A stretch of 64,000 nucleotides of DNA from Burkholderiaceae bacterium (lineage in GTDB: Bacteria; Pseudomonadota; Gammaproteobacteria; Burkholderiales; Burkholderiaceae_C), in the NCBI GenBank assembly GCA_044222685.1, contig JBGAMU010000011.1, positions 4,582 through 68,581 of the forward strand. Reading direction: 5' to 3'. Positions within the stretch are counted from its first letter, which is position 1; every line of letters begins with the position of its first letter. This document shows, piece by piece, positions 26,102 through 47,244 of this stretch. Under the pieces are notes generated by a model. The model searched no databases and had not been told where the DNA came from. It saw nothing but the letters and a program-made list of their open reading frames with translations. A program made the position numbers and the translations under genes.

Positions 26102-26596
26102 CGCACATCTCGCGCGGCGCGCAGCAGCGCGACATTGCTCAACCGACATCGATTCGAACGCACGCGCGCCGGGCGTGATCGCCGGCGCGCGGCCCGTTGA
26201 CGCACGGGGTTCCCCCCTGACTGCGGGGGACGCTGAAGGGGCGCCGAGGCTTCGCTTTCAGGCGCATTTAAGAAAGCACGGAGACCCCGCGGTTTATCGC
26301 TCGCTGATTGGGGGATTCCCCTCTTTTTCGCGGCGGGTCCTCCCCCAACGACGTAACGCAATGGCGTCGGTACCTTGACAACCCATGCGAGGCCCGAAAA
26401 GGGCGTCGTGTCACAAGCGGACAAGTCCTGTCCGGGGGATGTCATGAAACCAGTCTCGAGCTCTACGACCTGCCAGTTGCGAATCGGCCTTCGGGCGGCG
26501 TCGCAATCCGGTGTGGCACGCGCGTTTCCGCGCGAGGACCTCGAGACCAGACCCGGGTCGTGTGTTGTACCTGTCGGGCACCGTGGGAGCGTCACT

Positions 26597-29500
26597 ATGA
26601 AGACCCAGAGCAGCGCCAAGCCGTTCCAGATGATCCGACTGTCAGCCGCGCTCGTGATGGCGCTGGCGCTGTGGCTGCTGCTGAGCGTCGCCGCGCAGGC
26701 CGCGCCGTTGAGGCTCAAGGTCATCGGCGTCGCCGCCAATGGCACGCAGACGGACATCACCGCTACCGCGGACTATCGCTGGACGGTAGAGCAGGACGCG
26801 ACCAAGGCATCGGTTCCCGGCAGGGCCGCCGACATCACCAACTACTCGTTCAGCTTCCATACCAGCTACATGCCGGTCGTGGCGGCCGGGCGGGCGGGTA
26901 CGGCGAGCAAGACAGCGCCTCACCAGGATCCTGACGTCCTGCGCCTGTACAGCCAGGCGCTGCCCGACCTCGATGCAAGCAAGCGCTACTACGTGTCGGT
27001 CGCGGCGGTGGGCTACCAGATGGGTGGTGCGCCGGTCGTGTTCAACGGCGGCACGCCGGAGGCCACCGTCTATCTCAATCAGTACGAGCTGCCGACGGCA
27101 CAGATCTCCGTCTTTGCGTTCAACGACAACAGCCCGATCAACGGTGCACCCGACCTGCCGCAGGAGCAGGGCCTTGCCGGCTTCACCGTGAAACTCATCG
27201 AGGCAGGCGGTACCTTCGGGCAATCGGGTGGCGAAGTCACGCAGGACGCGTTCGGCAATCCACTGGGTACGACCTATAACGCAGACGGCACCGTCAGAGT
27301 TCGCGGCAGCGGCATCATCCTCACCGACGCCAACGGCGTCGCGGTGATCAAGAACCTGTTCCCCGCCAAGTACACGATCTTCATCAACCCGCCGGTCGGT
27401 TCCGACTGGCACCAGACCTCGACGATCGAAGGCACCAAGGGCAGCGACGCCTGGGTCAAGAACAACGAACCCCAGTTCTTCCAGGAGTTCGGTCCGCCCG
27501 GCCACCACGTCTTCCTGGGCTTCACCCGGTCGGGGTTCATCGCGCGCAATGCGAACAACACGCCGGTGCTGAATGGCGCCAACGCGATCACGGGCCGGAT
27601 CGTCAATACGCACTACTCGCGTCCGCCCATCTATACGTTCCACAACGGCGCGCCGGTGAACGACTGCTGGGTCGGCCTGAACGAGACCAAGGCCAACGGC
27701 GGCCGCGCGCTTTACGCGGCGGCCTGCAACAAGGACAGCACGTTCCGCATCCCGAACGTGCCGGCAGGGACTTACGAGCTGGTGGTCTGGGACGAGCCGC
27801 TCGACATGATCATCGCGGCGACGACGATCACCGTTCCCGCCGGTGGTCTGACGATGGGTGACGTGCCCGTGGCCAGCTGGTTCGGGCGCTACCAGGGCCG
27901 CGTGTTCCAGGACATCGACGGCACCGGCTTGCCGTACTTCGTGGCGGACTTCGATCGCCCCTACGTGTACGTCAATCCGATCACCGGCGTGGAAGAGGAG
28001 CGCCAGCAATCGTTCAAGGCGGGTGACCTCAAGCCGCCGTTCGGCTCCGGCATCGCCAACAACCTTCGATTCCGCGACGGCAGCATCTACCAATCGACGA
28101 CGACCAAGGACGACGGCACGTTCGCCTTCACCGAGGTTTTCCCCTTCTTCAACTGGCTGGTCGCCGAGATCGACTACGCGCGCTTCAAGGCGACCAGCGC
28201 CAACGTGGTCGTCGACGGCGGCGGGCCGATCGATCCTGCGGCCAACCGGGCAAAGCTGTGGAACGCCGCGCCTGGCAGTTTCGGCAGCAACGACCCAGCG
28301 CTCAAGTACGACCCATGGACGCGGCTCAATCCGCAGTTGCAGGCGCCCGGCGAGTGCCCGGAGGGGAGGGCAGCCCCCTGCTACTTCCGCACGGAGAGCG
28401 TCGCAGGCGGTCCGGGCGCGATTCTGCTCGAAGGCATGCAGACCTTCCTCGGCCAGACCAACCACGTCGAGTGGGGCAAGGTCCCCTACAAGATCGACGA
28501 GAACGGCGGCATTGCCGGCATCGTCTACTACGGCATCACCCGGGCCGAGGACGACCCGCGATATGCCGCAGCGGAAAACTGGGAGCCTGGCATTCCGCGC
28601 GTCCAGGTCAACGTATTCCTCGACTGCGATGCCGATGGCGTGCCCGACAAGCCGAAGAACGACGGCACGGGCGAATGCGAGGCCGGTGGCCTGAGTACGC
28701 AGGGATACCAGTACGTCAAGCCCGACGTCGACAACTATCCGTTCTGCTGGCGCGATCCGGCTTCCTGCGGACTGACCGCGCCCAGCAAGGGCCCTGAAGA
28801 CGTGGTACGCGGTGGCAATGGCACTGCCTTCAGCTACGGCGACGTGCTGCGCTGGGGTGCGCCAGGCACCTACGCGACGCGGGCGGACGCCGAGGCTGCG
28901 CAACTTCATGTCGGCCTCGGCAAGACCGACTCCTGGGACGATTCGGTCCCGTTCGGTTGCCCCGATCCGACGCCGTACACGATTCCCAACTCGACAACGC
29001 AACTCGACTGCTTCGACGGCCTGCGCAACTTCAATCAGGTGCGCCCGTCGGTGTTCGACGGTGGTTTTGCGTTCGGCCGTGTGGCTGGCCAGGCCGAGTT
29101 GCCGATGATCATCGGCGCCAACGGTGACGGCAAATACATCCTCGAAGCCGTGGCTCCCCCGGGATATCTGCACCAGGGCAATGGCGACAAGAACGTCGTC
29201 TTCGGTGATTCGCTGAAGGCCTCGCCGGCCGCGCTGCCACACGAGTGCGTCGGCATGGAGCTCGACGTTCCGCAGTTCCTCACATTGTTCCCTGGCGAGC
29301 CTAACCCGAACTTCGGCAACCCACAGTACCCGAACAACAAGTGGCGCAAGTGCGACATGAAGTCCGTTCCGCTGACACCGGGGCTCAATGCGGCGCCCAA
29401 CTTCTTCATGTTCACCGAGGCGCCTGTTGCGGGCCACGGCGTGGGCTTCATCCTCGACGACACTGCAGCCGAGTTCAACCGCTTCGCGCCCACATTCGGC

Positions 29501-32500
29501 GAGAAGTTCTCGCCCCCGCACCTGCCGGTGTCGATCCAGGACTGGACCGGACGCGAAATCTCGCGTGTGTACTCCGACCAGTTCGGTTCATACAACTTCC
29601 TGGTCCCCTCGAGCTTCACGATCAATCCGCCGTATCCGTCGGGCGTGATGCCGAGCATGATGGTCGCGTGCATGAATCACGCGGGCCCGATCAAGATCGG
29701 CGTCAACGCCGACGGCACCGACAAGATGGGCATCGATCCATTCTTCAACCGGGCCTACTCGCAGTTCTGCTACACGTTCCAGTACCTGCCGGGCAAGACG
29801 ACGTACCTCGACACGCCGGTACTGCCGGTGGCGGCTTTCGCAGCCGTGGACAAGAACCCGCTGGATTGCGAGTGCGCCGACGGCACACCGGGGATCTACA
29901 GCGCCACCAATTCGAGCACGGACAACGGCCCGTGGGTGCCGGCCGCCGGCAGCCGGCAGTTGACCATCGTCTCGATGGGCAAGATGGATGTGATCAACCC
30001 GGCGTTCGACCCGGCCGATGCGAGCACCACGAAGACCATTCAACGCGACTACGGCTTTGGTGACGCGGGCGGTAGCGTCACGCTGGGCGGCGTCGCGCTG
30101 ACGATCAATTCCTGGGCTGACGGCATCATCACGGCCACCGTGCCCTCCGGCGCGAGCACCGGCCAATTGATGGTCAGGCGCGGCGACAACGGCAAGGAGT
30201 CGGTGGTCGGCCTGACGGTTCACGTCGGCGGGCCGGCGCCCAAGAAGGTGAATCCGAACGCGGTCGCGGGCAGCGGTGTCTACAAGACGATCCAGGCCGC
30301 GATCGACTCGGTGACCGACGCCAACATGTTGCTGAACGGCGGCGCGTTGATCACCGTGGCGCCGGGAACGTACAACGAGTACGTCATCATGGACAAGCGC
30401 GTTCGCCTGCAGGGCTGGGGCGCCGGGTCCGTCACCATCAACGCCGCCAAGGCGAGCGCCGCTGGCCTGGCCGACTGGCGCGCGAAGATCAACGCAAAGG
30501 CAAGCGGCCCGAACGCCACGTTCACCCTGCTGCCTGGTCAGACGCTGGGCATCGACCCGGCCAACAACGAGCCGCTGCTGTTCGGTGCCGAGGAGGGTCC
30601 TGGCATCCTCGTGGTTGGCAGGCAGAGTCCCCTCGGTGGAGTGGGACCGTTCAGCGAATGCCTGTTCGGCAACACCGCGGCACTGCACATCGACGGCTTG
30701 ACGATCACCGGCGCCGACAGTGGCGGCGGCATCCTCGCCAGTGGCTATGCCTGTGGCTTGACGGTGTCAAACAGCCGCATCCTCAGCAACTACGGCACTT
30801 ACGGCGGCGGTGTGCGCATCGGCCACACCACGCTGACCGCGGTGGTCAACGGCGCCGACGCCTACACCGACGGCGTCAATCGCAGCCCGACGCTGCATCA
30901 CAACTGGATCTCGCAGAACGGCGCCACCGAAGCGGGCGGCAGCGGCGGCATCACGCTGGGTACCGGCTCGAACAACTACTCGGTTTCCGACAACTACGTC
31001 TGCGGCAACTTCTCGATGGCCGACGGCGGCGGCCTGAGCCACCTCGGTCGGTCCGAGGGCTCGATCACGAGCAACGCCTCGCCGGCGAACACCATTGTTC
31101 GCAACAAGTTCATCTTCAACCAGACCTTCAATCAGGCTGCAGACCCGATGGGTGGCGGGCTGTCGATCGCCGGCCATGTCGTGCTCGCCGGCGGCGCGCC
31201 GGCAGGGACCGGTGACGTGGTGGTCAACGCCAACCTGATCCAGGGCAACCAGGCCGGCGCCGGCGCCGGTGGTGGCGTGAGCGTCGCCCGCACGTTGGCG
31301 GCCGACGACATCGACCTGACCAACAACATGATCGTCAACAACGTGGCGGCCTACACCGGCGGCGGCGTGGCGTTGACGGGCACTTCGACAGGTGTTCGGC
31401 TCGTCAACAACACCGTGGCCAGCAACGTCAGTACGGCAACCAACCGGCAGGCAGCCCATCCGCTGGGCTGGACGAATCCTTCGCTGCCGCAAGTCGCCGG
31501 ACTCGCGGTGCTGAGCGGGAGCAGCCCGACGCTGCTCAACAACATCCTGTGGGCCAACCGTTCATACGTCTACCTGATCAACGGAACCACGAGCGGGCTC
31601 TTCAACCCGGGGACGACGGACGTCAACGCGGAAGCGCCGGATGCGGTCTACGCGGATCTGGGTCGCATCGGTGCCGGCGACGCCCTGACGCCGCGGTACA
31701 GCGTATTGACTCTCGGCGGCGTGGGCAATGCGACCTATGACACCGGGCTGACCGGATGCTCGAACACGGCGCCGGCGGCTCTGCCCTTCTTCTGCAATCG
31801 GCTCGTCGCGGCAAACAGCTTGTCACTGTTCGAGTCGCCGAACGACTTCCTGTCGATCATCGATCCGACCCAGCCGGTGGTGCTGCCTGAAACGACCGTG
31901 CTGCTGCAATCGGCGCTGACATTCGACGAGACCGGCAACTTCATCAACGTGATCTTCAGTCCGCTCACGCTGTGGAACCCGGACGGATCGCTGCGCGCCG
32001 ACTACCACCTCTCCGGCACCTCGGTGGCCAGGGACAACGGCCGCGCGCAGAGCGCCGCAGCCGGCGTCAACGCGACGATCGGAGCCGGGTTCGTGCCTGC
32101 CGCGGACTTCGACGCCAACGCGCGCAGCGCGGCGGTAGACATCGGGGCCGACGAGTTCGTCGGCGCGGCGGCGGACCTGTCCATCACCCAGACCGACGAC
32201 GTGGCCAGCGTCAACGCGGGCGGAACGCTCACCTACACCATCACGGTTCGCAACTTCGGGCCTAACGCAGTGACCGGGGCCACGGTGACCGATATTTTCC
32301 CCGCGGCGCTCACGGTCAACAGCTGGACCTGCACGCCAGCCACGGGCTCGAGCTGCACGGTGGTCGGCAGCGGCAACAACAGGACGGGCACGGTGACGTT
32401 GACGAACGGCGGCAGCGCGACGTTCACGGCCAACGTGACCGTGGCGGCGACCGCAAGCGGACTGCTGACCAATACCGCCAGCGTCGCGGTGCCGGGCAGC

Positions 32501-33163
32501 CTGACCGATCCGCAGCCTAGCAACAACGTCGCCACGGATACCGACATGATCGTGATTCCGCGGCCGACGCTTGCTGTTACCGACAACTTCAATCGTGGCA
32601 ACGCAAACACGCTCGGGCCGAACTGGCAGCAGCTTGTTGCGCTCGGAAATGGCGGTATCCGGGTCAATGGCAATCAGGCGTTCTGCGTGAACTCAGGACT
32701 AGCGGCGGCTCTTTGCCTCGCTGGCGCAAATGGCTACTGGAACGGTCCGGGAGCGACATTCGGATCGAAGCAAGCCGCGTCATTCACCTTCGCCAACGCG
32801 ACGCTGAACAACGCGAGCCTGTACCTGAAGGCGACGGGGACATTGAACGCCGCTGGCGCCTACCCGAACGCGCTGCGCGTGCGCTACTCGACCGGCGGCG
32901 GCGGGCAAGTGATCGTCGAAGCAACGACGAACGGTGGCCTCTCCTTCACGACTGCGGGCAGCATGGCAGCTAGCTTCGTCAGTGGTGACACGCTGACTGC
33001 GCTGACCGACAGCTCCGGATTCACCTACGTCTGGAAGACCTCCGGCGCTACGACGACGCTGCTCGGTGGCGCGCCCACAGGGGCCACGGGAGCCGGGCGG
33101 ACCGGCATCTTCTTACCCCCCGGAGGCCGAGTCGACAACTTTTCGGGCGGCACCGTGCCGTGA
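26597..33163 (+). CDS. 2188-aa secreted multidomain protein (SdrD-B/Cna-B-like folds, IPT/TIG-like, right-handed parallel beta-helix repeats, DUF11-like repeat, C-terminal ~190-aa module)
   Basis: Signal peptide MKTQSSAKPFQMIRLSAALVMALALWLLLSVAAQA. Beta-helix repeats (ITGADSGGGI..., NNMIVNNVAAYTGGGVAL, NNTVASN). DUF11-like ADLSITQTDDV...TYTITVRNFGPNAVTGATVTD. Many paired Cys residues. Confidence 0.85.
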   Translation: MKTQSSAKPFQMIRLSAALVMALALWLLLSVAAQAAPLRLKVIGVAANGTQTDITATADYRWTVEQDATKASVPGRAADITNYSFSFHTSYMPVVAAGRAGTASKTAPHQDPDVLRLYSQALPDLDASKRYYVSVAAVGYQMGGAPVVFNGGTPEATVYLNQYELPTAQISVFAFNDNSPINGAPDLPQEQGLAGFTVKLIEAGGTFGQSGGEVTQDAFGNPLGTTYNADGTVRVRGSGIILTDANGVAVIKNLFPAKYTIFINPPVGSDWHQTSTIEGTKGSDAWVKNNEPQFFQEFGPPGHHVFLGFTRSGFIARNANNTPVLNGANAITGRIVNTHYSRPPIYTFHNGAPVNDCWVGLNETKANGGRALYAAACNKDSTFRIPNVPAGTYELVVWDEPLDMIIAATTITVPAGGLTMGDVPVASWFGRYQGRVFQDIDGTGLPYFVADFDRPYVYVNPITGVEEERQQSFKAGDLKPPFGSGIANNLRFRDGSIYQSTTTKDDGTFAFTEVFPFFNWLVAEIDYARFKATSANVVVDGGGPIDPAANRAKLWNAAPGSFGSNDPALKYDPWTRLNPQLQAPGECPEGRAAPCYFRTESVAGGPGAILLEGMQTFLGQTNHVEWGKVPYKIDENGGIAGIVYYGITRAEDDPRYAAAENWEPGIPRVQVNVFLDCDADGVPDKPKNDGTGECEAGGLSTQGYQYVKPDVDNYPFCWRDPASCGLTAPSKGPEDVVRGGNGTAFSYGDVLRWGAPGTYATRADAEAAQLHVGLGKTDSWDDSVPFGCPDPTPYTIPNSTTQLDCFDGLRNFNQVRPSVFDGGFAFGRVAGQAELPMIIGANGDGKYILEAVAPPGYLHQGNGDKNVVFGDSLKASPAALPHECVGMELDVPQFLTLFPGEPNPNFGNPQYPNNKWRKCDMKSVPLTPGLNAAPNFFMFTEAPVAGHGVGFILDDTAAEFNRFAPTFGEKFSPPHLPVSIQDWTGREISRVYSDQFGSYNFLVPSSFTINPPYPSGVMPSMMVACMNHAGPIKIGVNADGTDKMGIDPFFNRAYSQFCYTFQYLPGKTTYLDTPVLPVAAFAAVDKNPLDCECADGTPGIYSATNSSTDNGPWVPAAGSRQLTIVSMGKMDVINPAFDPADASTTKTIQRDYGFGDAGGSVTLGGVALTINSWADGIITATVPSGASTGQLMVRRGDNGKESVVGLTVHVGGPAPKKVNPNAVAGSGVYKTIQAAIDSVTDANMLLNGGALITVAPGTYNEYVIMDKRVRLQGWGAGSVTINAAKASAAGLADWRAKINAKASGPNATFTLLPGQTLGIDPANNEPLLFGAEEGPGILVVGRQSPLGGVGPFSECLFGNTAALHIDGLTITGADSGGGILASGYACGLTVSNSRILSNYGTYGGGVRIGHTTLTAVVNGADAYTDGVNRSPTLHHNWISQNGATEAGGSGGITLGTGSNNYSVSDNYVCGNFSMADGGGLSHLGRSEGSITSNASPANTIVRNKFIFNQTFNQAADPMGGGLSIAGHVVLAGGAPAGTGDVVVNANLIQGNQAGAGAGGGVSVARTLAADDIDLTNNMIVNNVAAYTGGGVALTGTSTGVRLVNNTVASNVSTATNRQAAHPLGWTNPSLPQVAGLAVLSGSSPTLLNNILWANRSYVYLINGTTSGLFNPGTTDVNAEAPDAVYADLGRIGAGDALTPRYSVLTLGGVGNATYDTGLTGCSNTAPAALPFFCNRLVAANSLSLFESPNDFLSIIDPTQPVVLPETTVLLQSALTFDETGNFINVIFSPLTLWNPDGSLRADYHLSGTSVARDNGRAQSAAAGVNATIGAGFVPAADFDANARSAAVDIGADEFVGAAADLSITQTDDVASVNAGGTLTYTITVRNFGPNAVTGATVTDIFPAALTVNSWTCTPATGSSCTVVGSGNNRTGTVTLTNGGSATFTANVTVAATASGLLTNTASVAVPGSLTDPQPSNNVATDTDMIVIPRPTLAVTDNFNRGNANTLGPNWQQLVALGNGGIRVNGNQAFCVNSGLAAALCLAGANGYWNGPGATFGSKQAASFTFANATLNNASLYLKATGTLNAAGAYPNALRVRYSTGGGGQVIVEATTNGGLSFTTAGSMAASFVSGDTLTALTDSSGFTYVWKTSGATTTLLGGAPTGATGAGRTGIFLPPGGRVDNFSGGTVP

Positions 33164-33260
33164 TCGAGATCGCCGACGAGAACTCGATTGACAAGGTAAC
33201 GAACTCCGCCGGGTGTCTGCCCGGTGGAAGACAGCAGAAGACACCAGGAGTCGCACCATC

Positions 33261-34520
33261 ATGATTGCCAAGACTTTTCGCAAGGCCCTGCTGCCGATGG
33301 CCGTGGTGGCAGCGCTTGGGGCCGCTTCGTCGGCAGGCGCGGCAGTGTTCGTGCAGTGCGGGCCCGGAAACAGTGGCGTCGACCCGGCGACGGGAAAGAT
33401 TCGCCCGGCGTTCGACGCTGATGCGGGCCCGGCCGGCGTGGCGTGCAAGCACCTCAGCGCAGGCGACGGTTTCATCAGCATGGCCGACGGCCGGAGCCTC
33501 TACACCTTCGGCTTCGCCGACGTGACCAGCAAGACCTCGGCCGAGATCGCGCTCGACGCTCTGACGGCGAACTTTGCCGCGCCCACCATCAAGCTCAAGC
33601 AGAACCAGGACTTCTACCTGACGCTGACCAACGTGGCGATGACGATGCGGCCCGATCTGTTCGACCCGCACACCGTGCACTTCCACGGCTTCCCGCAGGC
33701 GGCACCGGTGTTCGATGGCATGCCTGAGGGCTCCTTCGGCGTGAACATGGGTTCGTCGGTCACCTACTACTACAAGCTCAACGACCCGGGCACCTACATG
33801 TACCACTGCCACCAGGAGGCCACCGAGCACATGCAGATGGGCATGCTCGGCAACCTGTATGTCGAGCCCGCGCAGGACGGCACGTCGTTCACCTACCCAC
33901 CCGTCGGTGGACGGCCCTACACGAAGTTCGTCTACAACGACGGCGACGGCTCCACCGGCTACGACATCGCCGTGCCGCTGCAGCTCTCGTCGATGGACCA
34001 CAACTTCCATGACGCCAGCCTGAGCATCAATCCGCTGCCCTTCAAGAACATGAAGGACACCTACGCGATGATCAACGGGCGCGGATACCCGGACACCGTG
34101 AGGCCCACTCCGCTCGATCCGCCCGCCGAGAAGGTCGACTACCTCACCGGCGTCGTCGATCCGGTGCCGTCTTCGCAGCCGCTCAGCGCCCTGATCACCG
34201 CCAGCAAGGGCCAGCGCGTGCTGCTGCGCCTGTCGAATCTGAGCGTCACCAACTACTACACCGTCACGGCGCAGGGCCTGCCGATGAAGGTGGTGGGCGC
34301 TGGTGCACGCCAGTTGCGCGGGCCCGACGGCAAGAACCTGTACTACGACACCACCTCGGTGACGCTCGGCGGCGGTGAGTCGGCGGAGGTGCTGATCGAC
34401 ACCAGTCAGGTGGAGCCGGGAACCTACTTCCTCTACACCACCAACCTGAACTACCTCAGCAACAACGATCAAGACAGCGGCGGAATGATGACGGAGATCG
34501 TCATCGCGGCGGCGCCGTGA
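33261..34520 (+). CDS. multicopper-oxidase family protein 1 (type-1 Cu site plus half of a trinuclear-cluster ligand set in its N-terminal domain)
   Basis: AGGAG RBS upstream and a Sec-type signal. HTVHFHG (HxxHxH) and YHCHQEATEHMQMGM (HCH..H....M). The second cupredoxin-like half has no ligands. Confidence 0.85.
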   Translation: MIAKTFRKALLPMAVVAALGAASSAGAAVFVQCGPGNSGVDPATGKIRPAFDADAGPAGVACKHLSAGDGFISMADGRSLYTFGFADVTSKTSAEIALDALTANFAAPTIKLKQNQDFYLTLTNVAMTMRPDLFDPHTVHFHGFPQAAPVFDGMPEGSFGVNMGSSVTYYYKLNDPGTYMYHCHQEATEHMQMGMLGNLYVEPAQDGTSFTYPPVGGRPYTKFVYNDGDGSTGYDIAVPLQLSSMDHNFHDASLSINPLPFKNMKDTYAMINGRGYPDTVRPTPLDPPAEKVDYLTGVVDPVPSSQPLSALITASKGQRVLLRLSNLSVTNYYTVTAQGLPMKVVGAGARQLRGPDGKNLYYDTTSVTLGGGESAEVLIDTSQVEPGTYFLYTTNLNYLSNNDQDSGGMMTEIVIAAAP

Positions 34521-34561
34521 TCGCAAACGAGACCCACCCGGCAGTTGTCAGGAGAGGCGCA

Positions 34562-35986
34562 ATGAAGAGCATGTCGAAATTCAGGTCGTTGCCAGGGGTC
34601 CTCCGGACCGGTCTTGCGGCCCTGCTGCTGGGCATGGTCGGCCAGGCGCAGGCCTACATCAACGGCTGGGAGGGATCGTGCGATGCCGATGCGACCGGGA
34701 AGGCATGCCCGCCCGCGACCGTTCGCACGTTCACGCTGACGGCCAAGCACGACTTCATCAGCACGTCCGACGGTGGCAGCCACTACGCATGGGGCTACTC
34801 CTTCGGTACCGATCTGCCGATGCAGTACCCCGGGCCGACGCTGATCGCCAGGCAGGGCGACACGGTCAAGATCGTGCTCAACAACACTCTGCCCGCGCCG
34901 GTGTCGATCATCTTCCCTGGCGTGCAGGGTGTCACCGCGACCGGTGGCAACCCCGGGCTGCTGACACGCGAGGCGCGCGCGGTGCCGATGTCCGAGAACG
35001 CGATCGTGGCCGGTCCGACCTACACCTTCGTTGCCGACAAGCCAGGAACCTACCTGTACCACAGCGGCACGAATCCCGACCTGCAGATCGAGATGGGTCT
35101 GGTCGGGGCGCTCATCGTGCGGCCGAACGGTTACGACATGGGCACACCGGCATCCCACGCCGGCCGCAAGGCCTATGAGCAACCCGGCACCCACTACGAC
35201 CGCGAGAACCTGTTCCTGCTGAGCGAAATCGACCCGGCCATCCACTGGCAGGTGTACACGCAGGTGTTCGGTAATCAGCCGATCGCGGTCGACACGACGG
35301 CGATCAGGCCCAGCATCTGGTTCATCAACGGCCGCAACGCGCCCGACACGCTGCTGGACGACCACGTCGACTGGCTGCCGACGCAACCGTACAACGCGCT
35401 GCCGCGCATGCATCCCGGCGAACGACTGCTGATGCGCGTGGTGAGCGCGGGGCGTGACCTGCATCCCTTCCACCACCATGGCAATCACGCCACGCCGATC
35501 GCGCGCGACGCTCGTGTGCTCGAGAGCGCTCCAGGCGCCGGTCCGGACCTGACTTCGCCGGACTTCACCGTCCGCGCGATTCCGGGACAGACCATGGACC
35601 TCATCTTCGAGTGGACAGGCAAGGGGATCGGCTGGGATGTCTACGGCACCGCGGCCGTCAATCCGCATAGCTGCACTCCCGATGGCAGCGGGTTCGATCC
35701 CGTCAGCAGGGAATGGTGTGCCGACCACTACAAACCCATCCCGGTGATCATCCCCGGTGCGCTCGATCTCTCCTTCGGCGAGAGCTGGAGTGGCAGTCCG
35801 TTTCTGGGCCTGGTCGGTTCGTTGCCGCAAGGACATCCGGGGCTCAACACCACTGGCGGCTACTTCCACATGTGGCACTCCCACAATGAAAAAGAGATCA
35901 CCACCGACGACATCTTCCCGGGCGGGATGATGACCATGCTCATCGTCGAGCCCTGGTCAGTGCTTCTGTTCGAAGACAAGCCGTAA
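34562..35986 (+). CDS. multicopper-oxidase family protein 2 (no type-1 Cys; HxxHxH + HSH in C-terminal domain)
   Basis: Signal peptide MKSMSKFRSLPGVLRTGLAALLLGMVGQAQA. HPFHHHGNH and HMWHSHNEKE. The N-terminal domain is ligand-less (SIIFPG, YLYHSGT). Confidence 0.85.
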   Translation: MKSMSKFRSLPGVLRTGLAALLLGMVGQAQAYINGWEGSCDADATGKACPPATVRTFTLTAKHDFISTSDGGSHYAWGYSFGTDLPMQYPGPTLIARQGDTVKIVLNNTLPAPVSIIFPGVQGVTATGGNPGLLTREARAVPMSENAIVAGPTYTFVADKPGTYLYHSGTNPDLQIEMGLVGALIVRPNGYDMGTPASHAGRKAYEQPGTHYDRENLFLLSEIDPAIHWQVYTQVFGNQPIAVDTTAIRPSIWFINGRNAPDTLLDDHVDWLPTQPYNALPRMHPGERLLMRVVSAGRDLHPFHHHGNHATPIARDARVLESAPGAGPDLTSPDFTVRAIPGQTMDLIFEWTGKGIGWDVYGTAAVNPHSCTPDGSGFDPVSREWCADHYKPIPVIIPGALDLSFGESWSGSPFLGLVGSLPQGHPGLNTTGGYFHMWHSHNEKEITTDDIFPGGMMTMLIVEPWSVLLFEDKP

Positions 35987-36009
35987 CCGCAAATTGGGGG
36001 AGTGCAATC

Positions 36010-38001
36010 ATGCGCACCAGAAAACTCACACTCAAGTTCGGCGTCGCGGCACTGAGTTGTACCTCGTTGTCGCTGGTCGCAGGCCAGGCACTCGCGGCTG
36101 AGTACTGGCTGAAGGTCGCAGCGACGACGGTGCAGATGCCCGATCCCGCCGGCACTCCCGCGACGATCGGTGTACCGATGTGGGGCTACGCCAGCTGCAC
36201 GGCCAGCTTCGCCACCTGCAGCAGTCCCACGGTGCCAGGTCCGGCGCTGACAGTGCCGCCTGGCGACACGACTCTGACAGTGCATCTGCTGAACGGTCTG
36301 TCGGTGCCGACGTCTCTCGTGATCAACGGCCTGGTCAAGCCGATGACACCGGTGTGGGACACGGGTGCGTCCGGCAGTCGCCCCAACGCGACCGCGCGCG
36401 TGCGCTCGTTCGACACCGAAGCTCAAGCAAACAACGGCACGCAGGCCGACTACGTCTGGGGCAGCGCGGCCAACCCGCTCAAGCCCGGCACCTATCTGTA
36501 CCAGAGCGGCACGCAGCCCCAGGTGCAGGTGCAGATGGGCTTGTACGGCGCGGTGACCAAGAACGTGACGGACGCAGTCGCCGCCACGGCGACCGACCCA
36601 GCGATACCGGGCCAGGCCTACACGGGCGCCGGCTATGCCTTCGACAATGAAACCACGCTCCTGTACAGCGAGATCGACACCGACCTGCATACCGCTGTCG
36701 CAACTGGGACCTATGGAACGACCGGTCCGACCAGCACGATCAACTACGCACCGAAGTACTTCCTGATCAACGGCAAACCCTACCAGTTCGGAGCGTCGGT
36801 TATCGAACCCAGCGGCAGCCCCGGCACCACGTTGCTGCGCCTGCTCAACGCCGGGCTAACCACGCACGTGCCGATGATCCAGGGCAAGCACTGGGACGTG
36901 ATCGCCGAGGACGGCAGACCCTACGCCTATCGCCGGACCCAGTACACCGCGCTGCTGCCCGCGGCGAAGACGGTCGACGTACTGCTGACGCCCGAGATCG
37001 GCGCAACCTACCCGATCCTGGATCGGCGTCTCAGCCTGTCGAACAGCGGGGCGTCGGACGGCGGCATGTTGGCGTTCCTGCGCTTCGCGGCGCTCGGCTC
37101 GATGGGGCTCGGCGGCGGGGCAGGCGGCAATGCAGCGCCCGTGGCTGAAGCCGACCCCTACGAGTCCGTTGTGGGTGTCACGCTCAACGTCGCGGCGCCC
37201 GGCGTGTTGAGCAACGACACCGATGCCGATAGCCCGATCATCAAGGCCGTCGCCGCCAGCGGTGCGACCGCGGGCGGCGGAACGTACGCGTTGAACGCCA
37301 ATGGCTCGTTCACCTATTCGCCGCCAGCTGGGAACCTGTCGACCGATAGCTTCACCTATCAGGCCACCGACGGCAGGGCGTTGAGCGTCGCGGCGACCGT
37401 GACCATCACCCTGACCACGCCGCCGGCGCCGAGCCTGCCCACGCTCGACGCTTTCGCGACACCTGGCAATAGTCTCGGTGGCAACTGGAGCCAGCAGGTG
37501 GAGACCACGGCCTCGGTGCCGGACGTCGGAGTCAGCGCGGCAGGCGTCGCGGCCGCCAACACGATCGCCCTGGGTGGTTTGGCGGTCTGGAACGCGGCGC
37601 CATTCGGAGCGACTCAGGGCGCCAGTTTCACTGGCGGAGGGCCGCCTGCGTCCACGGCCTACCTTGTTCTCAAGGCCAGCGGAGGTAACTCCATCGCAGC
37701 GCCGGCCAACTACGTTCGCGTGGGTTGCGAAAGCGGCCAGATCGTCGTTTCGACAATGATGGGCGGCAGCAACGTCTCCGTGTTCACAAAGCAGGCGGCG
37801 TTTGGCAGCTGCAGCGGTAGCGGGTCAATGAGCGCCGTGGTCGACGCCAAAGGCTTGGTGACCGTGTTCCAGGGCGCGACCTTCGCCGGCGGCGTACAGC
37901 TGCCCGACGTCCCCGTGTGGAAGGGCGGCGGCCGCATCGGCATCCAGCTGACGACGGTGGGAGCCACGGCCGATGACTTCGCCGGTGGTACGTTGCCTTG
38001 A
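36010..38001 (+). CDS. copper-ligand-less multicopper-oxidase paralogue fused to cadherin/Big-like segment and the shared C-terminal module
   Basis: YLYQSGTQPQVQVQMGLYG aligns with the MCO1/2 motifs but lacks His and Cys. APGVLSNDTDADSPI...FTYSPPAG...FTYQATDG is cadherin-like. The C-terminus ends DDFAGGTLP. Confidence 0.75.
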   Translation: MRTRKLTLKFGVAALSCTSLSLVAGQALAAEYWLKVAATTVQMPDPAGTPATIGVPMWGYASCTASFATCSSPTVPGPALTVPPGDTTLTVHLLNGLSVPTSLVINGLVKPMTPVWDTGASGSRPNATARVRSFDTEAQANNGTQADYVWGSAANPLKPGTYLYQSGTQPQVQVQMGLYGAVTKNVTDAVAATATDPAIPGQAYTGAGYAFDNETTLLYSEIDTDLHTAVATGTYGTTGPTSTINYAPKYFLINGKPYQFGASVIEPSGSPGTTLLRLLNAGLTTHVPMIQGKHWDVIAEDGRPYAYRRTQYTALLPAAKTVDVLLTPEIGATYPILDRRLSLSNSGASDGGMLAFLRFAALGSMGLGGGAGGNAAPVAEADPYESVVGVTLNVAAPGVLSNDTDADSPIIKAVAASGATAGGGTYALNANGSFTYSPPAGNLSTDSFTYQATDGRALSVAATVTITLTTPPAPSLPTLDAFATPGNSLGGNWSQQVETTASVPDVGVSAAGVAAANTIALGGLAVWNAAPFGATQGASFTGGGPPASTAYLVLKASGGNSIAAPANYVRVGCESGQIVVSTMMGGSNVSVFTKQAAFGSCSGSGSMSAVVDAKGLVTVFQGATFAGGVQLPDVPVWKGGGRIGIQLTTVGATADDFAGGTLP

Positions 38002-38060
38002 TCGAAAGCCGCATCCAGGTGAGTCCCGCTCGTGTTCGTCTGACGCGTAGGTCTCGGGCC

Positions 38061-38528
38061 ATGACATCGCGGTTTGGTGTGGCACTCGTCGCGCTGTCGT
38101 CGGCGATCTTCGTGACGCAGCTAGTCGGTTGCGCCACGGCTCCCGACTCCGCAGCGCTGCTGGCAGCGATTCAGGCCGAAAGGTCAGTGGTCGAGACGAA
38201 TTACGGTATCAGGGTCGAAGGGCTACGCCTCACCGCGGCCGGGTCGATGCTCGACTTTCGCTATCGGGTCCTCGATGCGCAGAAGGCTGCTCCATTCCTT
38301 AACGGCAAGATCCAGGCGTATCTGCTCGACGACGTGCGCAATGCGAAGCTCGGCGTGCCCAACACGCCCAAGCTCGGGCGCATCCGCCAGACCGCACGGA
38401 ACAACGTGATCCACGTCGACCGCAGCTACTTCATCATGTTCGGCAATCCGGGCAAGGCTCTGCAAAGCGGCGACAAGGTGGCCTTGCTGCTGGGCGAGGT
38501 CAAGATCACCGATCTGACGGTGGAGTAG
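38061..38528 (+). CDS. small lipoprotein of unknown function
   Basis: MTSRFGVALVALSSAIFVTQLVGC lipobox; 155 aa; no motif I recognise. Confidence 0.6.
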   Translation: MTSRFGVALVALSSAIFVTQLVGCATAPDSAALLAAIQAERSVVETNYGIRVEGLRLTAAGSMLDFRYRVLDAQKAAPFLNGKIQAYLLDDVRNAKLGVPNTPKLGRIRQTARNNVIHVDRSYFIMFGNPGKALQSGDKVALLLGEVKITDLTVE

Positions 38529-38592
38529 CGCCGCTGGGCCGAGCATGACGTCACGCCGCCGCAGACGTGAGCTCGGGCAAGATGTGGTCAAC

Positions 38593-40065
38593 ATGTCGCG
38601 AATCGGCTTTCGAGACTTTGCAGTGCAGTTCCTGGCCATCTTCGGGTGGGCCGCGGCGACATCGGCTGCATCGGCGGCCGTCATCGCTCCCGAGCTCGAA
38701 CGCGTGATGGCGGCGCGCGGCACTCATGCCGATACGCCGGTGATCCTGCGATTTGCCGAGCCGCTGGACCTGCAGCCGCTGGCCGTGACCGATCGTCTCG
38801 CCCGCGACAACAGGTTGCTGTTGGCCCTCAAGGCGCGCGCAGCGCGCAATCGCGCCGTCGTCGAGCCGTTTCTTGCGATGCAGGGTGCCGTCGGTGTCAA
38901 GGATCTGTGGATCATCAACGGTCTGGCGGCAACACTGCCTGCGGTGGCGGTGAAGCAATTGGCCGGCCAGGCCGGCGTCGAGCGCATCGACGTTGACTCG
39001 TTCGTCCAGGGCGGACGTTCACAACACGCTTCCTCGCCGCGTACGCCAGCGCCGCAGACCAAAACGCAAACGGCAGTGGCACCCCCTGCGATCGCGGTCG
39101 ACCCAGTCGCGTTGTCGCGTACGACTGTGAGCTGGAACGTCGCCGCGATCCGCGCGCCGCAGCTGTGGGCGCTCGGCCATACCGGCACAGGAGTGGTGGT
39201 CGCAGCCATGGATACCGGCGTGGACCTTGCGCATCCGGACCTGCAGCGCCGTTGGCGCGGGGGGACGAACAGCTGGTTCGATCCACACGGTGAGCAAGCG
39301 ACACCCTACGACGGGTCCGGTCACGGCACGCAGGCGATGGGAGTCATCGTCGGCGGATCGTCGATAGGTGTCGCTCCCGACGCGCGCTGGGTCGCTGTGA
39401 AGCTCTACAACGCCGACGGGCGCGCGCGCATGAGCGACATTCACCTGGCCTTTCAATGGCTGATGGATCCCGACGGCGATCCGGCAACGCTCGATGCACC
39501 CGATATCGTCAACGCCTCATGGGCGCTGACCGGTCGGGGTGCGGGCGCCTGCATCCTCGAGTTCAGCGACGATGTCCGCGCCCTGCGCAGCGCCGGCATT
39601 GCAGTCGTTTTTGCCGCGGGCAACGATGGCCCGGCGCCAGGCACCAGCAACAGCCCGGGCAACAACCCGGGTGTTCTGTCGGTCGGTGCCGTGGATCGCA
39701 GGCTGCAAGTGGGGCGGCAAGTGAGCCGCGGTCCATCGGCCTGCGAAGGTACGGTGTTCCCTCGTCTGGTGGCGCCCGGAATGAACGTTCGCACGACCGA
39801 TGTCTCGCACGGCGGGCTGCCGTCGTACGCCACCGTGTCCGGCAGTTCGCTGGCCGCGCCGCATGTGGCGGGTGTGATGGCGTTGCTGGCCGGTGCATTT
39901 CCCAGGGCCTCGGTGACCGAACTGGAGGGCGCGCTTGTCCAGGGCGCGCTCGACCTGGGCGACGATGGCGCCGACAACACGTACGGCAGCGGCCTGGCCG
40001 ATGCCTTGGCGGCATTCCACATCCTGCAGAAGGCCAGCGGATCGGTCGTGACAGGCCATCGCTGA
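38593..40065 (+). CDS. subtilisin-like S8 serine protease with I9-type propeptide
   Basis: Catalytic triad contexts VVVAAMDTGVD, GSGHGTQAMG and SGSSLAAPHVAG, with an N-terminal signal peptide and propeptide. Confidence 0.9.
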   Translation: MSRIGFRDFAVQFLAIFGWAAATSAASAAVIAPELERVMAARGTHADTPVILRFAEPLDLQPLAVTDRLARDNRLLLALKARAARNRAVVEPFLAMQGAVGVKDLWIINGLAATLPAVAVKQLAGQAGVERIDVDSFVQGGRSQHASSPRTPAPQTKTQTAVAPPAIAVDPVALSRTTVSWNVAAIRAPQLWALGHTGTGVVVAAMDTGVDLAHPDLQRRWRGGTNSWFDPHGEQATPYDGSGHGTQAMGVIVGGSSIGVAPDARWVAVKLYNADGRARMSDIHLAFQWLMDPDGDPATLDAPDIVNASWALTGRGAGACILEFSDDVRALRSAGIAVVFAAGNDGPAPGTSNSPGNNPGVLSVGAVDRRLQVGRQVSRGPSACEGTVFPRLVAPGMNVRTTDVSHGGLPSYATVSGSSLAAPHVAGVMALLAGAFPRASVTELEGALVQGALDLGDDGADNTYGSGLADALAAFHILQKASGSVVTGHR

Positions 40066-40089
40066 AACCAGACATCCCGAGGTGCTCTG

Positions 40090-40713
40090 ATGAACGTACG
40101 TGCTGAATCCATGGGCCTTGCAGTGGCGCTCGCACTCGCGACAGGTGGCGCGCTGCTCAGCCCGTCCGTCGGTTCGGCGCACGAGGGCAAGCAACATGCA
40201 ACGCGGTGGCCCGGCTCCAACGACTACCTGCGCTCGGTACGTTCGTACGCGGTGCCGGATGTCGTGCTGACCGACGGCGACGCGCGCCAGGTGCGCCTGC
40301 GCGAACTGTTGGCGAGCAACGACCCGGTGATGATGAACTTCATCTTCACCACCTGCGGCACGATCTGCCCAGTGATGGTCAAGGTCTTCGCCGACGTGCC
40401 TGATCGGCTCGGTGCTCAGGCAAAGAACCTGCGCTTGATCTCGATCTCGATCGATCCCGACAACGACACACCGGCCCAGCTCAAGGCCTACGCCAGGAGC
40501 TTCGGCGCTGGTGAGCGGTGGAAGTTCCTGACCGGCAGCGCGCAGGACATCAAGAGCCTGCAACTCGCCTTCGATGGCTACCGTGGCGACAAGATGAACC
40601 ACGAGCCGCTCACGCTGATGCGTCATGCCGTGGGCAAACCCTGGATCCGTATCGACGGCTTCGCGAACCCCGACGAGCTGGTTCGCGAGTACCGCAAAGG
40701 GGGGCCGCAGTGA
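40090..40713 (+). CDS. SCO1/SenC-family copper chaperone
   Basis: Thioredoxin-like fold with FIFTTCGTICPVM (CxxxC) and a downstream His (KMNHEP). Confidence 0.85.
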   Translation: MNVRAESMGLAVALALATGGALLSPSVGSAHEGKQHATRWPGSNDYLRSVRSYAVPDVVLTDGDARQVRLRELLASNDPVMMNFIFTTCGTICPVMVKVFADVPDRLGAQAKNLRLISISIDPDNDTPAQLKAYARSFGAGERWKFLTGSAQDIKSLQLAFDGYRGDKMNHEPLTLMRHAVGKPWIRIDGFANPDELVREYRKGGPQ

Positions 40714-42377
40714 CGCTGCTCGGCGCGTCCGGTGTTTCCACCCTGCGGCGAGCGGCGTGGCTGCCTTCGGGGCTCGCCGTGCTAATGCATGTCTTCTTGG
40801 CGGTTGGTGCCTGGGCGCAGGCCGCTGCGCCCGAGGCAAGTGGCGATGCCGCGCAACTGGCGCTCGGCCAGCGCATCTATCGGGAGGGCATCGGTGCGTC
40901 TGGCCAAGCGCTGAGGGCGGTTGGCGCGGCGCAGGCGGCACTCGGTGGCAAGGACGCGGCCTGCGCCACCTGCCACCGCAGGAGCGGGTTTGGCTCCAGT
41001 GAGGGCAGGTTCGTCATCCGGCCGATCATCGCACCGGCATTGCTGCAGGAGCAGAGCGTCGCGCTGCACGCACCGCGCGTCAAGGCGCGAGTGGGGACGA
41101 GTCAACGCCCGGCCTACAACGAGGCCTTGCTGGCGCGCGCCATTCGAGGCGGCGTCGACGCCGCTGGCAAGCCGCTCGATGCCGTGATGCCGCGCTACGC
41201 GCTGAGCGACGACGAGATGAAAGCACTGTCGGCGTATCTGTTCTCGCTCGGCGCCAAACCATCGCCAGGCGTGGACGAGCACGACATCCACTTCGCCACC
41301 GTGATCCAACCCGGCGTCGCGCCGGAGCGGCGCCGTGCGATGCTCGACGTGATGCAGGCCTTCGTCAAGGACAAGGGTGCCAACGTGCGTTCGGACGAGC
41401 AACGCCGCGAGGCCGGCAACATGCGCATGTACCGCTCCTACCGCAAGTGGGTGCTGCATGTGTGGGAGTTGAATGGGCCGAGCGAAACCTGGTCAGCGCA
41501 ACTCGAGGCGTTGTACAGCCAGCAGCCAGTGTTCGCCTTCATTGGTGGCCTGGGCAACGCGAGCTGGGGCCCGATCCATGCCTTCAGCGAGCGCCTCGAG
41601 ATCCCGAGCGTGTTGCCGCAGGTGGATCTGCCGTTGCTGACCAGCATCAACCAATACACCTTCTACTTCTCGCGCGGCATGGTGCTCGAGGCGGAGGTGC
41701 TGGCCAAGTTCGTGCGTGAGCAGGGGGACGCGGGCCCGATCGTCCAGGTCTATCGCCGCGAAGAGGCGGGCGCGGCAGCGGCTGCGGCGTTCCGTGCCGC
41801 GCTGACGACTGGCGCGACGGTGGAGGACCGCGTGCTCGAAGGGCCGGCGACCGAGGCGTTCTGGCAACAGCTGTACGCCGGCAAGCCCGCCGCGGTGGTG
41901 CTGTGGCTCGGCGCATCGGATCTAGTGGGGGCACCTGCGCCGGGCGGCACTGCGCCCAGCGTGTACCTGTCCTCCAATCTGCTGCCGGGTCGGCTTCCCG
42001 ATGCGCTCGCCAAGGCCAATGCGCGACTCGTGTACCCGTCCGACCTTCCGCCCAAGCGCGAGGCGCGTCTGCTGCGCCACAAGCTGTGGCTGCACAACAA
42101 GGGCATTGCGGTCACCGACGAGGTGGTTCAGGTGAACACCCAGTTCACGATGACGGTGGTCAGCGATGTGGTGGGGCACATCATGGACAGCTTCTCGCGC
42201 GACTACTTCGTCGAGCGCATCGAGCATGTGGTCGGCCAGACACCGATGGCTTCGGTGTACCAGAACGTCAGCCTCGGTCCCGGCCAGCGTTTCGCGGCCA
42301 AGGGCAGCTCGGTGGTGCAGGTGCTCGACGCCGACAAGAAGCAGCTGAAGGCGCTGTCGGGCTGGATCGTGCCCTGA
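40710..42377 (+). CDS. monohaem cytochrome c domain fused to a type-1 periplasmic binding-protein-like domain
   Basis: The GTG start overlaps the SCO1 stop (GTGA). Signal/TM segment, then CATCH with a downstream Met (AVMPRY). The ~380 C-terminal residues look like a Leu/Ile/Val-binding-protein fold. Confidence 0.75.
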   Translation: MTLLGASGVSTLRRAAWLPSGLAVLMHVFLAVGAWAQAAAPEASGDAAQLALGQRIYREGIGASGQALRAVGAAQAALGGKDAACATCHRRSGFGSSEGRFVIRPIIAPALLQEQSVALHAPRVKARVGTSQRPAYNEALLARAIRGGVDAAGKPLDAVMPRYALSDDEMKALSAYLFSLGAKPSPGVDEHDIHFATVIQPGVAPERRRAMLDVMQAFVKDKGANVRSDEQRREAGNMRMYRSYRKWVLHVWELNGPSETWSAQLEALYSQQPVFAFIGGLGNASWGPIHAFSERLEIPSVLPQVDLPLLTSINQYTFYFSRGMVLEAEVLAKFVREQGDAGPIVQVYRREEAGAAAAAAFRAALTTGATVEDRVLEGPATEAFWQQLYAGKPAAVVLWLGASDLVGAPAPGGTAPSVYLSSNLLPGRLPDALAKANARLVYPSDLPPKREARLLRHKLWLHNKGIAVTDEVVQVNTQFTMTVVSDVVGHIMDSFSRDYFVERIEHVVGQTPMASVYQNVSLGPGQRFAAKGSSVVQVLDADKKQLKALSGWIVP

Positions 42378-47243: not shown

Positions 47244-47244
47244 G

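Follow-up and report, generated by a model that had tools for sequence, protein, structure and literature searches.

An eight-gene operon predicted to encode a surface-tethered multicopper oxidase with copper ligands divided between two paralogous subunits

Layout and conservation of the operon

We analysed a 64,000-nucleotide stretch (the window; GC content 67%) of contig JBGAMU010000011.1 from a Burkholderiaceae bacterium (assembly GCA_044222685.1), in which positions 26597–42377 had been singled out, from the letters alone, as an operon for secreted copper oxidases with its own protease, copper chaperone and cytochrome. Eight open reading frames (ORFs) on the plus strand, all co-directional, fill this interval. 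The first encodes a giant scaffold or adhesin-like protein (26597–33163; 2188 aa, predicted to be secreted, with a Sec signal), and it is followed by three genes that we refer to by their relationship to multicopper oxidases (MCOs): MCO1 (33261–34520; 419 aa, a two-domain cupredoxin subunit), MCO2 (34562–35986; 474 aa, a two-domain subunit paralogous to MCO1) and MCO3 (36010–38001; 663 aa, a ligand-less pseudo-MCO). The remaining four encode a lipoprotein (38061–38528; 155 aa, lipobox LVGC), an S8 (subtilisin-family) serine protease that is predicted to be secreted (38545–40065), a SCO1/SenC-type copper chaperone or thiol-disulfide protein that is predicted to be periplasmic (40090–40713), and a MofC-like fusion of a cytochrome c and a binding protein that begins with GTG (40710–42377). 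GC content at third codon positions is 0.79–0.89 in the eight ORFs, which is usual for genes of this window. The identity of each product was matched by Pfam and NCBIfam searches, so that the original prediction of eight tightly spaced genes on one strand holds, as does its overall description of a secreted copper-oxidase operon equipped with a protease, a Sco1 chaperone and a cytochrome.

The gaps between successive genes are, in order, 97, 41, 23, 59, 16 and 24 nt, and the SCO1 and cytochrome genes share a GTGA start/stop overlap at 40710–40713; the predicted spacing of 23–98 nt becomes 16–97 nt on measurement. A second possible GTGA, at 34517, may be the one overlap of the original prediction; it would require a GTG start for MCO2 and is less likely, because homologues of MCO2 have their start where the ATG at 34562 lies. 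Inspection of the N-termini of the operon products identified Sec-type signals and no twin-arginine motif in any of them, in agreement with the original prediction and in support of its deduction that copper is inserted after export from the cytoplasm. Upstream of the operon a terminator-like hairpin with a T-run (26310–26323, plus strand) lies about 200 nt past an OmpR-type regulator gene (25295–26101), leaving about 270 nt available for a promoter of the operon's own. No sigma-70-like promoter was detected in these roughly 270 nt, and the promoter/terminator scan gave a result no better than chance.

Relatives of MCO1 are found in more than 512 species when one genome per species is scanned across about 186,000 species genomes, with thousands of relatives in the databases, and an exhaustive search of 1.84 billion cluster representatives identified 278 clusters at E ≤ 1e-30. 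We compared the eight window proteins by tblastn and blastp with the best 80 MCO1 loci (54–81% identity), the flanks of which were limited to 10 kb and reached the full 10 kb in 51. The loci come from Burkholderiales, Gallionellaceae, Thiobacillus, Sulfuricella, Methylocaldum, Thiohalomonadales, Desulfobulbaceae, Desulfatibacillum, Syntrophobacterales, Myxococcota, Nitrospirota, Acidobacteriota, Phycisphaerae, Hydrogenedentes and Bacteroidales. The same gene order, which the original prediction had proposed to look for elsewhere, is indeed present: the order giant–MCO1–MCO2–MCO3–lipoprotein–S8 is kept in at least 41 of the 51 full-flank loci, and the SCO1 and cytochrome genes are nearby in about 31 of the 51 (swapped or upstream in a few). 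Where the flank is sufficient, MCO1, MCO2 and MCO3 follow one another directly in this order in essentially all loci, and every complete locus has MCO3. Relative to the window proteins, identities have medians of 43, 61, 54, 45, 44, 51, 51 and 45% for genes one to eight. The eight-gene arrangement is conserved far beyond chance.

Copper ligands divided between MCO1 and MCO2

Pfam places Cu-oxidase_3 and Cu-oxidase_2 at residues 103–205 of MCO1 and Cu-oxidase at residues 283–401; MCO2 also has Cu-oxidase domains, and MCO3 matches Cu-oxidase weakly. The PDB sequence closest to MCO1 is the type-C two-domain MCO of Nitrosomonas europaea (3g5w), with both domains covered. Like this enzyme and its counterpart from Arthrobacter (3gdc), MCO1 has two cupredoxin domains in one chain and a type 1 (T1) copper site in domain 1. 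In two-domain MCOs the trinuclear copper cluster (TNC) is held by four histidines of domain 1 of one chain and four histidines of domain 2 of the neighbouring chain. The motifs of the type-C enzymes, namely HxxHxH and HCHx5HxxxGM in domain 1 and HxxHxH and HxH in domain 2, align one by one with motifs in the operon products.

The domain-1 motifs are in MCO1, as HTVHFH (nt 33669–33686) and HCHQEATEHMQMGM (nt 33804–33845). Alignment with domain 1 of 3g5w pairs HTVHFHG with HTIHWHG and YHCHQEATEHMQMGM with YHCHVNVNEHVTMRGM, and indicates that every T1 and TNC ligand of that domain is retained. Residues H137, H140, H142, H182, C183, H184, H190 and M195 are invariant in 68 species, and MCO1 is the only one of the three proteins with a complete T1 site, which comprises H137, C183 and H190 together with the axial M195. 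In domain 2 of MCO1, by contrast, YYTVTAQGL and LYTTNLNYL stand opposite the histidine motifs HAIHTHGH and MIHDHVDTH of 3g5w and provide no ligands, with Tyr, Thr and Asn at the positions of the HxH motifs. Both histidine motifs are missing from domain 2 in the 68 species, and an MCO1 homotrimer therefore could not build a TNC.

Domain 1 of MCO2 is cupredoxin-like and has lost the T1 and TNC ligands, and domain 2 bears HPFHHH (nt 35462–35479) and HSH (nt 35876–35884). The ligand mapping of MCO2 rests on profile alignments, in which the patterns 'lhPfhtHGnh' and 'ffMwHsHnek...GGmmt' of a 48-sequence profile align with both domain-2 TNC motifs of 3g5w. Residues H301, H304, H306, H439, S440 and H441 are invariant in 69 species, and serines occupy the cysteine positions of both domains, Ser440 in domain 2 and Ser168 (in YHSGT) in domain 1, the latter in 68 of the 69. 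The ligands absent from MCO1 or MCO2 of the window are absent in essentially all of the 68–69 species.

MCO3 consists of two cupredoxin-like domains (residues 1–360) followed by a cadherin/Big_9 module (nt 37123–37416; Pfam matches to Big_9 and Cadherin_5) and a lectin-like C-terminal module (nt 37417–37998), and no HxH, HCH or Cys is conserved in it across 74 orthologues. HxH motifs number two in MCO1 (H140/H142 and H182/H184), two in MCO2 (H304/H306 and H439/H441) and none in MCO3; the set of eight histidines in four HxH motifs is contained in no single protein and is full only when MCO1 and MCO2 are combined. That the proteins are paralogous is indicated by hhalign, which relates MCO1 to MCO2 with a probability of 99.4% and MCO3 to the MCO2 family with a probability of 100% (E=3.7e-46, 251 aligned columns), the HPFHxHG of MCO2 lining up with tHVPxxxG of MCO3. 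An unusual inter-domain linker, LLSEMDPxIH ... INGRxxPDT, is common to all three.

Taken together, the alignments place the predicted T1 site and the domain-1 half of the TNC on MCO1, the domain-2 half on MCO2, and no ligand on MCO3. As read from these ligands, the three MCO genes encode three predicted subunits with one catalytic centre, not three oxidases, and MCO3 is a putative ligand-less pseudo-oxidase. The original prediction, which had taken each of the three for a copper oxidase, needs correction on this point. It is hardly credible that the three are independent MCOs, or that the locus is a copper resistance determinant of the Cop/Pco type. Each protein does match Cu-oxidase Pfam models, and there are weak NCBIfam matches to CopA and CueO, but the full ligand set is in no single protein, which already contradicts independent oxidases, and the scores are far under the cut-offs (53.6 and 35 bits against 479 for the CopA model TIGR01480, and 18 bits against 525 for the CueO model NF008205). 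Met-rich stretches are lacking, with no more than 4 Met in any 30-aa window, there are no CopB/C/D or other cop/pco genes in the 64-kb window, and there is no P-type ATPase nearby. The Cop/Pco system was rejected on the strength of the sub-cut-off scores and the lack of Met-rich segments and of CopB/C/D, the last two of which had led the original prediction to the same view.

Since the TNC of two-domain MCOs sits at an interface between domain 1 of one chain and domain 2 of another, and its ligands are split over MCO1 and MCO2, the sole possible O2-reducing centre would be the interface of MCO1 (domain 1) with MCO2 (domain 2), and a predicted MCO1/MCO2 heteromer follows closely from the ligand assignment. 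A ring of three two-domain units requires a third unit, which would explain why the copper-free MCO3 is kept universally. By analogy with known enzymes, the most likely arrangement is a 1:1:1 six-domain ring of MCO1, MCO2 and MCO3 that would contain one T1 site and one TNC in the layout of ceruloplasmin. Ceruloplasmin and hephaestin are pseudo-threefold rings of six cupredoxin domains with a single TNC at one interface, a likeness that the operon products may share, whereas they are single polypeptides, have three mononuclear sites and are eukaryotic. The type-C MCOs, for their part, are homotrimers with both halves of the cluster on every chain and with three T1 sites and three TNCs. In the operon, unlike in those enzymes, the halves appear to be on different paralogous chains, the third chain is without ligands, one T1 site and one TNC would be formed, there are extra insertions (of about 90 aa in domain 2 of MCO2), and the chains appear to be attached to a giant adhesin-like protein.

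It is also conceivable, if unlikely, that the active heteromer consists of MCO1 and MCO2, as a heterodimer or as a higher assembly in which they alternate, and that MCO3 stands outside the catalytic ring, as an adaptor to the giant protein or to the substrate by way of its cadherin and lectin-like modules. The ligand split needs MCO1 and MCO2 alone, and MCO3 is the least conserved of the three (median identity of 45%, against 61% for MCO1 and 54% for MCO2), bears binding modules, and is fused to the giant protein in one of the compared loci (L057). Set against this, MCO3 retains both cupredoxin-like domains and the family linker over the 251 columns it shares with MCO2, and it is present in all complete loci. 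Moreover, known two-domain cupredoxin enzymes (two-domain MCOs and NirK) form closed trimers, and we know of no precedent for a two-subunit cupredoxin ring. We favour the ring in which MCO3 is the third unit.

MCO2 has two further features that set its domain 2 apart. The two histidine motifs are separated by an insertion of about 90 aa, of which residues 369–389 (in the region of nt 35666–35728) include the near-invariant H369, E384, D388 and H389, and which contains a pair of cysteines in about half of the species; the conserved residues could constitute an extra metal or proton-relay site. In addition, the first histidine of HxxHxH, H301 (nt 35462–35464), is at a position that in copper-bearing domains is that of a T1 ligand, and it is invariant although the partner cysteine position is an invariant serine (S440).

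The giant protein, related clusters and the probable substrate

The giant protein matches DUF11 and Ig-like beta-sandwich families in Pfam, with weak TIG and weak beta-helix matches. Its parts are Ig-like beta-sandwich domains (about 26702–30496), a TIG-like domain (29993–30187), a parallel beta-helix (about 30464–32146), DUF11 (32174–32542) and a lectin-like C-terminal module (32564–33160). The protein had been described as a giant beta-helix protein; a beta-helix is there, limited to about residues 1290–1850, and the protein as a whole is not one. Residues 1–1853 are conserved in 75 loci (median identity of 43%), and the tail of DUF11 and lectin-like module (residues 1860–2188) is lineage-specific. 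All of the homologues carry the annotation 'hypothetical', and some also have PF13229 Beta_helix. The whole protein had no match in a PDB sequence search, and a fold search with an AlphaFold2 model of residues 501–1300 (pLDDT 76.5) returned generic Ig-like adhesin or pilin folds only, with TM-scores of about 0.1; matches of the beta-helix to NosD (E=0.011) and pectinesterase (E=0.003) are too weak for use. The giant protein contains no Cu-oxidase domain and no HxH or HCH copper motif, and as a candidate MCO of the MofA/OmpB type it was rejected for want of a copper motif.

In several of the compared genomes the giant protein and an MCO are encoded by one ORF. Giant–MCO1 is a single ORF in loci L034 (Gallionella, in which the signal peptide of MCO1 is gone), L051, L059 (Hydrogenedentes) and L073 (Steroidobacteraceae), and MCO3–giant is a single ORF in L057 (Vicinamibacterales). 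Among the 150 best cluster representatives, at least 17 are 1700–2800 aa long and end with an MCO1 domain; one of these (P0362) shares 42% identity with the giant protein over 1710 aa. Binding modules are also shared between subunits. The module of about 200 aa (DNF...W...DxF-GGT[VL]P) that ends both the giant protein and MCO3 is joined to MCO2 in L002, L009, L011 and L013; it matches no Pfam family above threshold and looks like a jelly-roll or lectin-like binding domain that is mobile between subunits. The cadherin-like module of MCO3 occurs on the S8 protease in L018, L021, L030, L033 and L039. The fusions and shared modules indicate that the products probably form one physical assembly, and the natural fusions of the giant protein with MCO1 or MCO3 strongly support the prediction that the oxidase sits on the giant adhesin-like protein. 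The suggestion that the oxidase is mounted on a large surface protein is thereby upheld.

In the loci of two metagenome-assembled genomes of Desulfatibacillum (L049, positions 4817–11194, and L050) the giant ORF runs without a stop into MCO1, and at the junction a Gly-run, a hydrophobic helix and RSRFTRR, which resemble a C-terminal anchor, are followed by a signal-peptide-like stretch. With anchor-like and signal-like segments between the parts, these two cases are ambiguous and were left out of the count of fusions.

We consider it probable that the operon encodes one secreted, surface-tethered MCO whose three two-domain cupredoxin subunits are paralogous, along with its scaffold and maturation factors. 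The MCO subunits would cross the inner membrane unfolded via Sec and be loaded with copper in the periplasm with the aid of Sco1 and the MofC-like cytochrome c/binding protein, a haem and binding protein that might supply reducing power or a ligand, and the S8 protease would process at least one component. The copper-free MCO3 would close the ring with MCO1 and MCO2, and the folded holo-complex and the giant protein would exit by way of an adjoining system that resembles a type II secretion system (T2SS). With its beta-sandwich stalk, its beta-helix, and its DUF11 and lectin-like tips, the giant protein would hold the oxidase at the cell surface or against a solid; the oxidase would accept electrons one at a time from a reductant outside the cell, for which Fe(II) or Mn(II) at mineral surfaces is the likeliest candidate, and would reduce O2 to water. 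A further-reaching version of this reading is that the complex is an obligate 1:1:1 heterotrimer, a three-chain bacterial counterpart of ceruloplasmin, that is always docked on the giant adhesin, is exported by its own T2SS, and is an extracellular oxidase of solid-phase Fe(II) or Mn(II) that is widespread (more than 500 species of many phyla) and has been overlooked; this version we put forward tentatively, as possible rather than probable.

Ceruloplasmin and hephaestin are extracellular ferroxidases in which acidic residues by the T1 histidines bind Fe(II). In MCO1, D132 and D135 (just before the T1 ligand H137) and E186 and E189 (just before H190) are invariant; these acidic residues recall ferroxidase sites and are a suggestive lead to a metal substrate. 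A second lead, to a metal or mineral, is a multihaem cytochrome cluster of the type used in extracellular electron transfer that adjoins the operon. We infer that the substrate is probably mineral Fe(II) or Mn(II). Electrons passed through an MCO end on O2 outside the cell, and the mineral would therefore be oxidised without feeding the respiratory chain, by a route that would not itself conserve energy.

A cluster of similar content has been described in the iron oxidiser Sideroxydans lithotrophicus ES-1, in which Slit_1812-1818 encode three cupredoxin proteins, two small proteins, Sco1 and a cytochrome, and in which the products reach a significantly higher abundance on magnetite than on Fe(II)-citrate (PMC12016527). 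The products are predicted to be extracellular, and the member without MCO motifs is described as 'larger, with adhesin and polysaccharide-lyase-like domains' (PMC12016527). In He et al. (2017) these ES-1 genes had appeared as 'three tandem MCO genes', without an assigned role and not homologous to MofA/OmpB (PMC5566968). As in the operon, three cupredoxins are adjacent (two with MCO motifs and one without) and are accompanied by small hypothetical proteins, Sco1/SenC and a MofC-like cytochrome, and the motif-less protein fits the MCO3–giant fusion type of L057. Unlike in the operon, no S8 protease is mentioned, and the giant protein is apparently fused to MCO3 and is not encoded by a separate first gene. 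Researchers on iron oxidisers flag the cluster as a candidate for the oxidation of solid Fe(II) minerals.

The weak pectinesterase and NosD matches of the beta-helix, a match to fn3_3 (polysaccharide lyase family 4 domain II), the lectin-like and cadherin-like modules and the annotation of homologues as 'parallel beta-helix repeat protein' would suit a laccase-type oxidase of organic matter (phenolics, humics, lignin-like material or exopolymer) in which the giant beta-helix is a polysaccharide lyase or binder. However, no catalytic family of lyases or hydrolases is significant, the only folds that match are those of adhesins and pilins, the genes nearby encode multihaem cytochromes rather than carbohydrate-active enzymes, and the sole expression data tie the cluster to a mineral electron donor; we regard an organic substrate as improbable.

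We think it very improbable that the assembly does not reduce O2 in vivo and is instead a module for extracellular electron transfer or mineral binding, like that proposed for Geobacter OmpB/OmpC in the reduction of Fe(III) oxides. Such a role would account for the presence of the cluster in anaerobes (Desulfobulbaceae, Desulfatibacillum and Syntrophobacterales) and would suit the 24- and 27-haem cytochromes that adjoin the operon; OmpB clusters have MofC-like and Sco1 genes, and the reduction of Fe(III) oxides requires OmpB (PMC5566968). Against it, invariance over many phyla extends to all eight TNC histidines and to the T1 ligands, which is hard to explain if the O2-reducing cluster is not used. 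Many of these 'anaerobes', furthermore, inhabit oxic–anoxic interfaces.

Several observations weigh against the favoured picture of one tethered, O2-dependent metal oxidase. The cluster is common in these same three lineages of sulfate reducers and syntrophs, which are regarded as strict anaerobes and are a poor fit with an oxidase that depends on O2. Stoichiometries other than the 1:1:1 ring are also compatible with the ligand split, and the AlphaFold2 model of MCO2 (from a 28-sequence alignment) is poor, with a pLDDT of 48 and a disordered domain 2. The acidic residues near the T1 site are merely suggestive as to substrate. In many loci outside the Betaproteobacteria the SCO1 and cytochrome genes are not within 10 kb, and adjacency to T2SS genes is visible in a minority of loci, within flanks of 10 kb. 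Finally, Slit_1812-1818 appears to be the same cluster as the operon by a match to its published description, not to its sequence.

Other secreted MCOs share parts of this organization. Geobacter OmpB is a multicopper protein that is surface-exposed and is exported by an atypical T2SS (cited in PMC5566968), and the export route proposed here, through Sec, copper loading in the periplasm and a T2SS, parallels that of OmpB, whose cluster also has MofC-like and Sco1 genes. In OmpB/OmpC of Geobacter and MofA-MofB-MofC of Leptothrix, a secreted MCO likewise occurs with a MofC-type protein, joined by Sco1/SenC in Geobacter and some iron oxidisers (PMC5566968), and MofC next to MofA/OmpB has the same architecture of cytochrome c and binding protein as the fusion encoded by the operon (PMC5566968). 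The operon has the pairing of a MofC-like and a Sco1/SenC gene that marks MofA/OmpB-type clusters (compare MofC, GSU1397 and GSU1398; PMC5566968). Compared by description, the OmpB and MofA clusters differ in having one large single-chain MCO with all motifs and no trio of two-domain paralogues, and the MofA cluster has the peptidyl-prolyl isomerase MofB in place of the S8 protease and lipoprotein, no FKBP gene having been seen at the operon. The Mnx complex of Bacillus (MnxG with MnxE3F3) is also a multisubunit MCO that acts on a metal cation; unlike the operon products, MnxG by itself is a complete six-domain MCO, its partners MnxE and MnxF are small and unrelated to MCOs, and the cluster is not shared between chains.

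A literature search for a heteromeric, heterotrimeric or split-cluster MCO found none, the sole 'heterotrimer' match being a proteolytic alpha-alpha-alpha' form of a homotrimer. What appears to be the same cluster figures in two papers that do not analyse its copper sites, one of which calls two of the proteins canonical MCOs, and we found no description of a split active site. In our judgement, what is new here is a two-domain MCO that has turned heteromeric, with a single active centre and an adhesin scaffold. If confirmed, it would be a living example of the proposed step between homotrimeric two-domain oxidases and single-cluster six-domain enzymes such as ceruloplasmin. Should the active site be split, any single 'MCO' expressed alone would be expected to fail, and the working unit would be the trio and its scaffold. 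Ecological importance is probable, because the family is highly conserved (54–81% identity for MCO1 across phyla) and occurs in more than 500 of about 186,000 species genomes.

Maturation, export and neighbouring genes

The S8 protease matches Peptidase_S8 (PF00082, E=6e-42) and PDB entry 3afg (E=1.6e-35), and its catalytic triad, in the order D-H-S, comprises D223 (nt 39211), H260 (nt 39322) and S435 (nt 39847), which are invariant in 50 orthologues. The true start may be the ATG at 38590. A propeptide had been predicted for this protease, and no I9 domain was detected in it. SCO1 matches SCO1-SenC (PF02630, E=2e-21) and has the CxxxC motif (CGTIC, nt 40354–40368) and distal histidine of the Sco1/SenC proteins, which have a thioredoxin fold; C89 and C93 are present in 30 of 30 orthologues and H171 in 29. 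The cytochrome fusion joins a monohaem cytochrome c domain (Cytochrom_C; CATCH, nt 40962–40976) to a type-1 periplasmic-binding-protein domain (Peripla_BP_6, E=5e-7, slightly below the Pfam cut-off). Its CxxCH and axial Met are invariant in 35 orthologues, and a PDB search with the fusion gave no match. The lipoprotein is in the same position in 66 of the 80 loci; it has no conserved His, Cys or Met and no metal ligands, and no relative was identified in Pfam, NCBIfam or the PDB, including with a 34-sequence profile.

Downstream of the operon and convergent with it, on the minus strand, Pfam matches identify a T2SS-like export cluster (43102–53526) that encodes pseudopilins (43102–44623), a TPR-STN secretin (44620–46662), three ORFs of unknown function, a GspE-type ATPase (49188–50927), a GspF-type platform protein (50924–52135), the major pseudopilin GspG (52148–52672) and an SLT lytic transglycosylase (52795–53526). 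At the level of genes, the putative T2SS substrates of the operon have Sec signals and a nearby secretin, GspE, GspF, GspG and pseudopilins, as would be expected for this route. T2SS components or pseudopilins are within 10 kb of the cluster in L001, L002, L003, L005, L009, L010, L020, L041 and L058; these loci, at least nine in number, are from Betaproteobacteria, Nitrospiraceae and Deltaproteobacteria, and SLT is found in 10–18 loci.

Also downstream of the operon and convergent with it is a gene on the minus strand for a NarL/LuxR-type response regulator (42401–43228; Pfam Response_reg and GerE), which likely regulates the operon. Homologues of this regulator adjoin the cluster in 29–33 of the 80 loci and a PAS-HisKA_3 kinase does so in 22; the kinase and the NarL/LuxR regulator are the neighbours most often conserved (in the upstream flanks of L030, L045 and others), which suggests that the cluster is under redox- or O2-responsive control.

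On the other side of the operon, a minus-strand region (18332–23031, 15505–18249 and 8393–15542) encodes two multihaem cytochromes c of very large size, one with 27 and the other with 24 CxxCH motifs, which have Pfam matches of the c7 and MtrC-like kinds. Beside them lie the gene for a 914-aa secreted TPR/SPOR-like protein and an entire ccm operon for cytochrome maturation. The region looks like an extracellular electron-transfer cluster of the 'PCC3' porin-cytochrome type described for iron oxidisers.

The window also contains a second Sco1/SenC gene (56484–57020, minus strand) beside a histidine kinase gene (55145–56482, minus strand). This pair and a gene for a 460-aa secreted protein (57159–58541, plus strand) recur upstream of the MCO cluster in L005, L007, L065 and L068.

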